From: Candidatus Woesearchaeota archaeon
GTDB taxonomy: Archaea; Nanobdellota; Nanobdellia; Woesearchaeales; ARS49
Assembly (NCBI GenBank): GCA_014729555.1
Contig: WJJT01000054.1
Coordinates: forward strand, 1 to 51,245
Reading direction: 5' to 3'
Length of the DNA: 51,245 nt
Position 1 is the stretch's first letter. The number at the start of each line of letters is the position of its first letter. Positions 18,331 through 49,654 of the stretch are shown piece after piece. The translations under genes were made by a program, and so were the position numbers. Under the pieces are notes generated by a model. The model ran no database searches. It was not told the DNA's origin and saw nothing but the letters and a program-made list of their open reading frames with translations.

Positions 18331-18370
18331 TCCTTGTAAATATATGTAAAGAATAGAATCAAGAAAAAAA

Positions 18371-18420
18371 GTAATCTAACTGGGATGACACCCAGCTGAA
18401 GACTAAATAACATTCACCCG
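18371..18420 (+). pseudogene. Degenerate partial copy of the downstream tRNA(GAA)
   Basis: 43/51 identity by eye to 18476-18526 (D-arm, anticodon arm, half of the V-arm); no T-arm or acceptor stem. Confidence 0.8.
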
Positions 18421-18469
18421 GTATAATACTCAAGACATTTTGCATATAAAAATGTTTTGGTTTGGCAAA

Positions 18470-18583
18470 GCCAGAGTAGTCTAACTAGGTATGACGCCTA
18501 GCTGAAGACTAGGTGACATTCACCCGAATGTCTTGCGGGTTCAAATGTCATGGTGGGAACTGAAATTCCCGCCTCTGGCGCCA
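18470..18583 (+). tRNA. tRNA with GAA anticodon (Phe), long variable arm, 21-nt intron at 59/60, encoded CCA
   Basis: Acceptor GCCAGAG/CTCTGGC-G; anticodon arm CCTAG-CTGAAGA-CTAGG; V-arm GACATTC-ACCC-GAATGTC; T-stem GCGGG/CCCGC; BHB TTCA-AAT...TGAA-ATT gives intron 18546-18566. Confidence 0.88.
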
Positions 18584-18638
18584 AATACCTTATTCAATCA
18601 AAACCTTAATATAATCCTTATTCTTATTTCTTCTTAAA

Positions 18639-19379
18639 ATGGGTGACAAGAAGCCAGTACTAGGCATTGTATCATTCACATGCGACCAAGGATGCCAGTT
18701 CACAATACTATTCATTGAAAAACTAATGGACATTCTAAAGAAATTTGACGTGCAATACTTTCATTTGCTGAAAGAAAAGAACAGAAAAGCAAAATTCGAC
18801 CTCTGCTTTGTAGAAGGAGCGATAACAACAAAAAAAGAAGCAGAAAAACTCAAAGAAATCAGAAAAAAAAGCAAAGTACTTGTGGCGCTGGGAGCATGCG
18901 CATGCCACGGCGGAGTTCCTGCAATGCGAAACTTCATAGAAAATAAAGAACTTGAGAAATACGTCTACAACCAAAAGCTTCCAAAAGACGCACTGTCAGC
19001 AGCAGGAATAGGAGAATACGTGAAAGTAGACTATTACATGTATGGCTGCCCAATAATAAAAGAAGAATTCATGAATTTTTTAAATCAATTCCTGAAAGGA
19101 AAAATAATGAAAGAATTTGAGGGGCCTGTGTGCGCAGAGTGCCCAAGACAAGGCAAGCAAGACTGCTTTTTAAGACAGAAAAAAATCTGCCTGGGGCCGC
19201 TGACACACGGCGGATGCTCAGCAGTCTGCACAAAAGCAAACTTTGAGTGCATGGGATGCAGAGGACCAAGACCAAAAGCAGACTACAAGGCAGAAATAGA
19301 GCTTTTCAAGTCCTGGGGATTATCAGAAAAAGAGGTAATGCAAAGACTAAACATGTTCAAGAACATAGAAAACACATAA
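18639..19379 (+). CDS. [NiFe] hydrogenase small (delta) subunit, group 3b-like
   Basis: TCDQGC, VEGAI, LGACACHGG, YGCP, CxxC, CLGPLT.GGC...C, CMGCRG. Confidence 0.9.
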   Translation: MGDKKPVLGIVSFTCDQGCQFTILFIEKLMDILKKFDVQYFHLLKEKNRKAKFDLCFVEGAITTKKEAEKLKEIRKKSKVLVALGACACHGGVPAMRNFIENKELEKYVYNQKLPKDALSAAGIGEYVKVDYYMYGCPIIKEEFMNFLNQFLKGKIMKEFEGPVCAECPRQGKQDCFLRQKKICLGPLTHGGCSAVCTKANFECMGCRGPRPKADYKAEIELFKSWGLSEKEVMQRLNMFKNIENT

Positions 19380-30006: not shown

Positions 30007-30174
30007 GGGCTGGTAGTTCAACCTGGTAGAATGCTCCGCTGGCAGCGGAGAGGCTGCGGGTTCAAAAGCGAGAGACTGCACTCTACGCGTACTGGCGTAC
30101 GGTTGGGCATTCCTACAGAAGCCCAACAGGACTCTGGAATATGTGATCTCTTGTTGAAGGTCCCGCCCAGTCCA
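30007..30174 (+). tRNA. tRNA-Ala(GGC) with a 94-nt intron at 59/60
   Basis: GGGCTGG/CCAGTCC-A with G3-U70; CTCCG-CTGGCAG-CGGAG; BHB TTCA-AAA...TGAA-GGT gives intron 30067-30160. Confidence 0.92.
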
Positions 30175-32048: not shown

Positions 32049-32200
32049 GGCGGCGTAGCTTAGCCTGGTATAGTACTGCGCTCATGAATGTTTTTCTTGA
32101 GCTATGAGGTTTTTAACCAATGATTACAAGAAAGCAGTGCAACGCAGGGGTCCCGAGAGGTATATACAAATATCCGGGAATTCAAATCTCGGCGCCGCCA
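32049..32200 (+). tRNA. tRNA-Met(CAT), elongator-type, with two introns (about 55 nt in the anticodon loop; 23 nt at 53/54)
   Basis: GGCGGCG/CGCCGCC-A; anticodon stem CTGCG/CGCAG enclosing 62 nt; T-stem BHB CCCG-AGA...CGGG-AAT gives intron 32158-32180. The first intron's boundaries are uncertain because its BHB is relaxed. Confidence 0.8.
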
Positions 32201-33311: not shown

Positions 33312-33395
33312 GCCGCAGTCGCATAACCTGGTATTGCGCAGGACTGGAAATCCTGTTTCCTTCGGGATATCCCGGTTCAAATCCGGGCTGCGGCG
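33312..33395 (+). tRNA. tRNA-Ser(GGA), intronless
   Basis: GCCGCAG/CTGCGGC-G; CAGGA-CTGGAAA-TCCTG; V-arm; CCCGG-TTCAAAT-CCGGG. Confidence 0.95.
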
Positions 33396-48008: not shown

Positions 48009-48132
48009 GGGCCCATGGTCTAGTGGTTATGACAACACCCTTACAAGTGAAAACTAAGCAAGGTGTGGATCCCCGGTTCGAACAGGCTCGAAGGATTCGC
48101 GTCCTTCAGCCACGAAAGTCCGGGTGGGCCCA
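48009..48132 (+). tRNA. tRNA-Val(TAC) with introns at 37/38 (15 nt) and 59/60 (36 nt)
   Basis: GGGCCCA/TGGGCCC-A; BHBs CTTA-CAA..TAAG-CAA (intron 48046-48060) and TTCG-AAC..CGAA-AGT (intron 48083-48118). Confidence 0.93.
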
Positions 48133-49508: not shown

Positions 49509-49654
49509 GGGCCCGTAGCTCAGCTTGGTTAGAGCGCTGGTCTTATATGGCCACGTTTTAAGCATAACTCGTCTAAGCGAGCCAGAGGTCCTGGGTTCAA
49601 ATATGTTCGAGGGGATTCAACTCCCTTCGGTCGTTGAAAGTCCCAGCGGGCCCA
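49509..49654 (+). tRNA. tRNA-Ile(TAT) with introns at 37/38 (32 nt) and 59/60 (39 nt)
   Basis: GGGCCCG/CGGGCCC-A; CTGGT-CTTATA..A-GCCAG; BHBs CTTA-TAT..TAAG-CGA (intron 49548-49579) and TTCA-AAT..TGAA-AGT (intron 49602-49640). Confidence 0.92.

Follow-up and report, generated by a model that had tools for sequence, protein, structure and literature searches.

The 51,245-nucleotide stretch of DNA analysed here, to which we refer as the window, covers positions 1 to 51,245 of contig WJJT01000054.1 from a Candidatus Woesearchaeota archaeon (GCA_014729555.1; G000 in the following), a metagenome-assembled genome (MAG) of 1.04 Mb that is 89% complete and has a G+C content of 39.8%. At positions 18470–18583 of its forward strand lies a gene for a predicted class II transfer RNA that combines a long variable arm with the anticodon GAA, and that has a single intron and an encoded CCA end. 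The 5′ strand of the acceptor stem (18470–18476) pairs in all seven positions with 18573–18579. It is followed by a D arm (18479–18495) with a 3-bp stem, a U13·U22 opposition, and U20 in place of G20, whose D loop is Ser-like when compared with the tRNA-Ser(GGA) encoded at 33312–33395 of the window, and by an anticodon arm (18497–18513) with a 5-bp stem and the 7-nt loop CUGAAGA, which contains U33, the GAA anticodon at 18504–18506, and G37. The variable region of 21 nt (18514–18534) contains a hairpin (18515–18532) in which a perfect 7-bp stem (18515–18521 with 18526–18532) is closed by a C-rich 4-nt loop (ACCC). The 5′ strand of the T stem (GCGGG, 18535–18539) leads into T-loop positions 54–59, which extend to 18545, and here, between tRNA positions 59 and 60, the loop is interrupted by a 21-nt intron (18546–18566) with a strict hBHBh′ motif (BHB, bulge–helix–bulge). 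The last T-loop base (18567), the 3′ strand of the T stem (CCCGC, 18568–18572), and the 3′ strand of the acceptor stem (18573–18579) are followed by the discriminator G73 (18580) and the CCA (18581–18583). A TATA-like, A/T-rich box at 18444–18452, some 18–26 nt upstream of the first tRNA base, is a putative archaeal promoter. An earlier note on this DNA had listed the CUGAAGA loop, the 7-bp arm, G73, and a D arm like that of the tRNA-Ser at 33312, and all of these features are found where it had placed them; what it had overlooked is the 21-nt intron in the T loop.

It is this T-loop intron that makes standard programs miss the gene. Of the tRNAs in the window, ARAGORN called three but missed the long-arm GAA gene, and Rfam did not call it at its gathering score either, as RF00005 reached only 24.6 bits on the unspliced DNA, compared with a cut-off of 29, and misread the variable arm as the T arm. 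With the intron removed in silico, ARAGORN recognises a tRNA(gaa) of 90 nt that has a variable arm. The cloverleaf is of the 7/5 type (7-bp acceptor stem, 5-bp T stem), with all RF00005-type stems present, and the 114-nt stretch folds with a z-score of −5.96, none of 200 shuffled sequences folding equally well. Together with a paralog and with orthologs that carry compensatory changes, this fold establishes that the locus is real, constrained, and beyond chance. The gene does not belong to the tRNA-Sec type, as its anticodon is GAA and not UCA, its fold is 7/5 and not 9/4, and its D stem has 3 bp. An anticodon shifted by one position (positions 33–35, UGA), with which the gene could have been a missing tRNA-Ser(UGA), was also considered and rejected, as a canonical intron-containing tRNA-Ser(UGA) exists elsewhere in the genome (G000:C15:~18475-18644).

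The BHB of the T-loop intron has the central helix UUCA:UGAA with four of four pairs (H 4/4), flanked by a helix h of 5 bp, formed by the T stem, and by a helix h′ of 2 bp. Its two bulges are 3 nt each (AA|U and AU|U), and the exon–intron borders lie inside them. The same intron position and the same motif were found in 11 of 11 parsed family members, and the central helix covaries across the family (UUCA:UGAA, UUCG:CGAA, and UUCG:CGGA). Given removal of the intron, the mature RNA would consist of 90 nt plus CCA rather than of 114 nt. T-loop introns of the 59/60 kind are common in G000, and the tRNA genes of this genome are heavily interrupted by introns.

For the variable arm, the alternative that the arm itself is an intron was addressed by scanning every pair of splice sites that would leave a variable loop of 3–6 nt together with an intact T stem, with H of at least 3 and with h and h′ of at least 2. 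There was no acceptable BHB in the target gene, and a chance candidate appeared in 2 of 11 members, versus 11 of 11 for the T-loop intron, in agreement with the earlier note, which had seen no convincing BHB for an excision of the arm. All 11 parsed members retain the arm hairpin; its stem sequences are unrelated, and its loop is C-rich. As the arm lacks a BHB and compensatory changes are seen in the relatives, we read it as part of the predicted mature tRNA.

The gene is a member of a family. A paralog in the same genome (G000:C21:14683-14788(-)) is 82% identical and shares GAA, G73, and the intron with the target gene, its arm having 5 bp; in the acceptor, anticodon, and variable stems, the two genes are distinguished by compensatory changes. 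Orthologs with GAA are present in G005 (96% identity), G036 (90%), G009, G038, G043, G044, and G240, and in the public MAGs L141 and L158. Including the two copies of G000, GAA is found in 11 of the 12 public copies, and the GAA copies stem from at least five families; the sole public copy with another anticodon is that of L035, which has UAG. The L035 gene and the C21 paralog are each preceded by a similar TATA-like box, at a spacing like that of the target gene. Position 37 of the 11 public GAA copies is G in eight and A in three. Three copies from unpublished genomes have GAA (G003), CAA (G004), and AAG (G002). G73 is present in 14 of 14 copies with a readable 3′ end, and in the acceptor, anticodon, and T stems each pair is a standard pair in all eight public parsed members, with several pair types per position. 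Of the 301 genomes sampled from the phylum, 5 matched a strict class II pattern, and these 5 belong to one order. A stricter pattern gave 27 matches across public genome contigs, 4 of them tRNA-like, all from Woesearchaeota-type MAGs; these counts are lower bounds due to the strictness of the patterns. Among the four tRNA-like contig matches, one is labelled 'uncultured Methanosarcinales'. In the searches as made, relatives of the long-arm GAA tRNA were found in Woesearchaeota only. RF00005 detected only 20 tRNAs in the complete genome G052 and is thus too insensitive for a census, and tRNA finders based on regular expressions miss anticodon arms that are split by introns. A viral origin was rejected, as none of 42 pattern matches in viral contigs had a paired anticodon stem and none was tRNA-like.

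G000 contains two further related accessory tRNAs, which are likewise Ser-like and have G73 and a long arm: one at G000:C55:2505-2599(-) with the loop UUGAAAC (anticodon GAA), and the other at G000:C12:6838-6951(+) with the loop UUCACAC (anticodon CAC). A public ortholog of the C55 type, in G023, has GAA, the public orthologs of the C12 type have GAU (G014, G009, G010, and G052) or the canonical Ser anticodon CGA (G039), and the unpublished genomes G001–G004 contribute UAG, GAG, UAC, GAA, and CGA to the two types. Among these relatives (loci L043–L058 and L079), the anticodon differs between close relatives while the body is kept. The C12 type thus looks like a tRNA-Ser(CGA) lineage whose anticodon has been wandering between codons that have U as their second base. 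G73 is kept in every other accessory long-arm tRNA that has a Val, Ile, or Leu anticodon.

The earlier note had proposed to look for another tRNA-Phe in the genome, and such a gene is indeed present. It is a canonical class I tRNA-Phe at G000:C42:11017-11209(-), which has A73, G20, C13-G22, and the loop CUGAAGA after removal of four insertions, and which was located by blastn-short with eight class I tRNA-Phe genes of relatives from the same family (31 of 31 bases identical). The insertion after position 4 has 32 nt (H 3/4, h′ 6), the one at 37/38 also 32 nt, the one in the variable loop 31 nt (H 4/4, h′ 4), and the one at 59/60 24 nt; those at 37/38 and 59/60 have a strict BHB, and the other two a relaxed one. 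The spliced form is called by ARAGORN as a 74-nt tRNA-Phe. The known maximum for archaeal tRNAs is given as three introns in the accessible text of two publications (PMC4033280, PMC3333845). In its four-intron form, the gene escaped ARAGORN, Rfam, and the pattern searches. A search for anticodon arms in G000 yielded 40 matches, with no tRNA-like one among them besides the three long-arm genes, and missed the intron-split tRNA-Phe; a looser pattern gave noise at control level in five genomes, where the one tRNA-like match was a tRNA-Lys intron. Canonical intron-containing tRNA-Phe genes also occur in the carriers G043, G038, and G240, and the two kinds of tRNA are thus found together in four of the six carriers examined, the canonical gene not being resolved in G009 and G044. 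In view of the canonical gene, the long-arm GAA tRNA is an extra species beside tRNA-Phe in at least four of these six carriers, and not the housekeeping tRNA-Phe. That the long-arm tRNA replaces tRNA-Phe had seemed possible from an apparent mutual exclusivity, with the class I pattern matching 187 of 301 genomes but not G000 and the class II pattern matching 5 of 301, and this was rejected as an artefact, because introns hid the class I gene from the patterns.

The codons that correspond to the GAA anticodon, UUU and UUC (UUY), keep their standard meaning. Elongation factor 2 (EF-2) of G000 (C9:3375-5549) was aligned with 108 homologs from Woesearchaeota, none of them more than 77% identical (P0013–P0120 of 120, the 12 closest having been dropped), and the columns used had a conservation of 90% or more and an occupancy of 80% or more. 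In these columns, TTT stands for Phe in five of five cases and TTC in nine of nine, and the codons for Leu, Ile, Val, and Ser are all standard as well. With Phe in all 14 cases, UUY is therefore not reassigned, in line with the doubt about a full reassignment of UUU/UUC that the earlier note had voiced.

Which synthetase is the likely partner of this tRNA can be judged from the identity elements. According to the available text of one source (PMC9976931), the archaeal Phe identity set, determined for Aeropyrum pernix, consists of A73, C13-G22, G20, G34, A35, and A36, whereas Ser identity depends on the variable arm and G73, with G30-C40 as a weaker element in archaea, and does not involve the anticodon, so that anticodon variants of tRNA-Ser remain serylated and mistranslate. 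The same text gives A73 and A47c/G47d in the arm loop as Leu identity elements of Haloferax volcanii, and describes a strong dependence of the phenylalanyl-tRNA synthetase (PheRS) on GAA, as a yeast tRNA-Tyr with GAA is mischarged by PheRS. In the target gene, only the anticodon bases G34, A35, and A36 of the Phe set are found, and A73, G20, and C13-G22 are absent. The Ser elements are present in the form of the long arm and G73, with A30-U40 instead of G30-C40 and with an anticodon that is not of a Ser type (NGA or GCU). Leu elements are lacking altogether, as the discriminator is G73 and the arm loop ACCC contains no AG; the two recognisable tRNA-Leu genes of G000 have A73 and differ in the D arm and the arm loop. 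A seryl-tRNA synthetase (SerRS) with an N-terminal arm-binding domain (PF02403, 98.3 bits) and PheRS alpha are both encoded in G000, the former on contig C48, in an ORF around 11272, and the latter on contig C25.

As Ser marks are present, Phe marks are absent outside the anticodon, and a canonical tRNA-Phe exists, charging by SerRS, at least in part, is the most likely mechanism. A73, which is used by PheRS, LeuRS, ValRS, and IleRS (the enzymes for Phe, Leu, Val, and Ile), is one G-to-A change away and has been gained by none of the 14 readable copies, and this constancy, the switches to Leu anticodons, and the G73 of the relatives with Val, Ile, and Leu anticodons favour SerRS or another anticodon-blind enzyme. 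The best reading, which we put forward tentatively and at somewhat less than even chances, is that of an accessory tRNA that is charged by SerRS and able to read UUY as Ser. In such a mechanism, the transcript would start from the gene's own TATA-type promoter, the archaeal splicing endonuclease would cut out the 21-nt intron at the T-loop BHB, as suggested by the motif, and the product would be a 90-nt class II tRNA that keeps its long arm. With U33, G34, A35, A36, and G37, its anticodon loop should be a proper decoder of UUU and UUC, and its body presents Ser-type marks (long arm, G73, G1-C72, and a Ser-like D arm with U20) and no archaeal Phe marks outside the anticodon. SerRS, which is blind to the anticodon, may then charge this tRNA at least partly, and the serylated form would compete with tRNA-Phe at UUY on the ribosome, resulting in a low-level Phe-to-Ser ambiguity as is thought to occur with the nev-tRNAs and allo-tRNAs described below. 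The question raised by the earlier note, which had left the choice between a long-arm tRNA-Phe and a tRNA that inserts Ser at UUY, thus persists, and the answer Ser is favoured by G73 and by the missing Phe marks, without being proven.

There are also observations that weigh against a charging by SerRS. The weak Ser determinant G30-C40 is replaced by A30-U40 in the target copy, while the C21 paralog and five of eight public members have G-C. The canonical tRNA-Ser genes of G000, for the anticodons UGA, GCU (G000:C48:8549-8709), and GGA, have the same 15-nt variable region despite differences in their other parts and introns, a pattern that suggests either concerted evolution or an arm that is read in a sequence-specific manner; the target arm is longer, has a C-rich loop, and is unlike this 15-nt type, and SerRS may therefore discriminate against it. 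There are three Ser-like GAA genes in G000 (on contigs C44, C21, and C55) versus a single four-intron tRNA-Phe, and if all three were expressed and serylated, the load of mistranslation at a common codon would be heavy. A charging with Phe through the GAA anticodon is plausible, and UUY is used as usual at the conserved Phe positions of EF-2. Finally, Leu anticodons are found in orthologs of the same locus (UAG in the public L035; CAA in G004 and AAG in G002, both unpublished), and the decoding identity of the family is therefore not fixed.

A second, structurally odd tRNA-Phe, which PheRS would charge via GAA and from which SerRS would be excluded by the arm or the core, could provide extra capacity for UUY decoding, and we consider this rather unlikely. 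GAA and mostly G37 are conserved across families, as expected for a true Phe decoder, the anticodon is a major Phe determinant according to the accessible text of PMC9976931, the normal use of UUY at Phe positions would follow directly, the arm does not resemble the single type of the three canonical Ser tRNAs, and the presence of three GAA genes next to a single canonical gene with many interruptions would do no harm. However, A73 is found in none of the 14 readable copies, the parsed copies have U20 and lack C13-G22, and the Leu anticodons of syntenic orthologs would be intolerable to a synthetase that reads the anticodon. G73 is, moreover, kept in the long-arm tRNAs with Val, Ile, and Leu anticodons, which points to one anticodon-blind enzyme.

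Unlikely, too, is a tRNA-shaped RNA that acts outside translation, be it as a decoy for anticodon nucleases, as a regulatory RNA, or as an integration site in a small mobile cassette. What speaks for such a role is the patchy distribution in 5 of 301 sampled genomes by the strict pattern, the variation of the anticodon loops among the orthologs of the C55 and C12 families, and, in the genomic context, the variable presence of the tRNA cassette and the degenerate partial copies upstream of both G000 genes. The gene is flanked by an open reading frame (ORF) of 246 aa without Pfam hits and by genes for hydrogenase subunits, and the neighbouring hydrogenase gene is 81–88% identical to genes of 'Candidatus Woesearchaeota' MAGs. 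At this locus, upstream of the hydrogenase small subunit, the occurrence of a tRNA cassette of about 330 bp differs between close relatives: it is present in G000 and in L035 (with UAG) and absent from L034 and L032, and a transposase-like ORF lies at the cassette site in L031. About 50 nt upstream of the gene, at 18370–18420 of the forward strand, there is a degenerate partial tRNA copy that corresponds to gene positions 6–57 with 85% identity. It covers the D arm, the anticodon arm with its CTGAAGA loop, and the 5′ half and the loop of the variable arm, where the homology stops, and its stems no longer pair. The C21 paralog is preceded by a similar degenerate copy, and G005, G036, and L035 show this arrangement as well. 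The copy is probably a remnant of an older gene copy or of an integration event, and may represent the scar of an integration or a gene replacement. A function outside translation is less easily reconciled with a cloverleaf that is conserved in full, along with its T-loop sequence, U33, and the purine at position 37, with the intron BHB being kept in 11 of 11 parsed members and GAA in 11 of 12 public copies. Tested viral contigs gave no tRNA-like match among the 42, and among the carriers compared we found no conserved neighbour gene that is shared with G000 across families; the 246-aa ORF upstream of the gene shows no relation to the ORFs of 253 aa that occupy the upstream position in G038 and G043.

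Highly improbable is a Leu-accepting tRNA from a Leu isoacceptor lineage (CAA to GAA), which would insert Leu at Phe codons. The syntenic Leu anticodons of L035, G004, and G002 would be in line with it, as would G37, which is typical of both Leu and Phe decoders, a D loop that is more Leu-like in some members (G009 and L035), and the single change that separates CAA from GAA. These points are countered by G73 in all copies, by the A73 and the different D arm and arm loop of the tRNA-Leu genes of G000, and by the C-rich arm loop without AG, where the H. volcanii enzyme is described to need A73 and A47c/G47d (PMC9976931, accessible text). A decaying tRNA-Ser duplicate or an assembly artefact, to which the lack of calls by tRNA finders and the adjoining degenerate fragment might point, is strongly disfavoured, as the missing calls are explained by the intron and as G000 has two intact copies and independent MAGs of several families have intact copies with compensatory changes.

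Four further tRNA genes of the window are missed by ARAGORN with default settings or lie below the Rfam cut-off because of introns. By reading, these are a tRNA-Ala(GGC) with an insertion of about 100 nt in the T loop (30007–30174), a tRNA-Met(CAU) (32049–32200), a tRNA-Val(UAC) (48009–48131), and an apparent tRNA-Ile(UAU) beside the rRNA operon (49509–49653). In the conserved Ile columns of EF-2, ATA occurs 23 times, ATC 4 times, and ATT not at all, and this preference for ATA fits the tRNA-Ile(UAU); a tRNA-Ile(GAU) was not recognised in G000.

Among the described kinds of tRNAs, the nev-tRNAs and the allo-tRNAs are the closest. The nev-tRNAs of nematodes join a class II body to an anticodon that belongs to a class I amino acid (Hamashima et al. 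2012, PMC3333845; PMC4033280); as far as the accessible text of these sources goes, they are charged with Leu and have Gly(CCC) and Ile(UAU) anticodons for rare codons, and a table in the 2014 review lists them for nematodes only (PMC4033280). The long-arm GAA tRNA shares with them, as they are described there, the class II body, the class I anticodon, the class II recognition elements, the coexistence with a normal isoacceptor, and the expected codon ambiguity. Unlike these eukaryotic tRNAs, it is archaeal, has Ser-type marks (G73), and corresponds to a Phe codon in common use, and its T loop harbours a BHB intron. In bacterial allo-tRNAs, for which many non-Ser anticodons are reported, a long variable arm together with G73 or U73 is regarded as a sign of Ser acceptance (Mukai et al. 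2017, PMC5389517, accessible text). The long arm, G73, and a non-Ser anticodon are common features, whereas the allo-tRNAs described in that text are bacterial and have 8/4 or 9/3 acceptor/T stems, and the target tRNA is archaeal and has the standard 7/5 arrangement, which places it outside the allo-tRNAs.

Within its own genome, the target tRNA resembles the tRNA-Ser of the window in the D-arm pattern, G73, and the GCC start, and differs from it in the variable arm; with the tRNA-Phe it has the CUGAAGA loop and the 59/60 T-loop intron in common, and it lacks the A73, G20, and C13-G22 of this tRNA. In yeasts of the CUG clade, a tRNA-Ser(CAG) with a Leu-type anticodon on a Ser body is serylated, and the codon has been reassigned genome-wide. 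The likeness to this tRNA and to engineered tRNA-Ser mutants (PMC9976931, accessible text), Ser bodies that remain serylated with an anticodon of the Leu or Pro type, consists of a Ser body with a foreign anticodon, a SerRS that is blind to the anticodon, and a purine at position 37 that is inherited from the new codon family. In contrast to the CUG-clade yeasts, UUY still occupies conserved Phe positions, and the canonical tRNA-Phe is present. In the literature searched, we found no description of an archaeal long-arm 7/5 tRNA with the anticodon of a class I amino acid. A Nanobdellota preprint (10.64898/2026.05.13.725050) states, in its available text, that, apart from Trp and Val patterns, tRNAscan-SE detects tRNAs for every amino acid, and that text contains no mention of long-arm Phe tRNAs that we could find.

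For annotation, the consequence is that a naming by anticodon alone would designate the long-arm gene as tRNA-Phe, while the real multi-intron tRNA-Phe escapes the finders. A family that combines a Phe anticodon with a Ser-type discriminator beside a normal tRNA-Phe is a clean natural test case for the way in which SerRS and PheRS partition tRNAs, for codon ambiguity being tolerated or used in genome-reduced symbionts, and for the way in which tRNA identity shifts. It is conceivable, although on balance doubtful, that Woesearchaeota keep a small set of Ser-accepting long-arm tRNAs with anticodons for hydrophobic amino acids (Phe GAA, Val CAC/UAC, Ile GAU, and Leu UAG/GAG), which either may serve a programmed and possibly regulated Ser misincorporation, resulting in a statistical proteome in a host-dependent archaeon, or may belong to an unknown tRNA-dependent pathway that recognises the C-rich arm loop.

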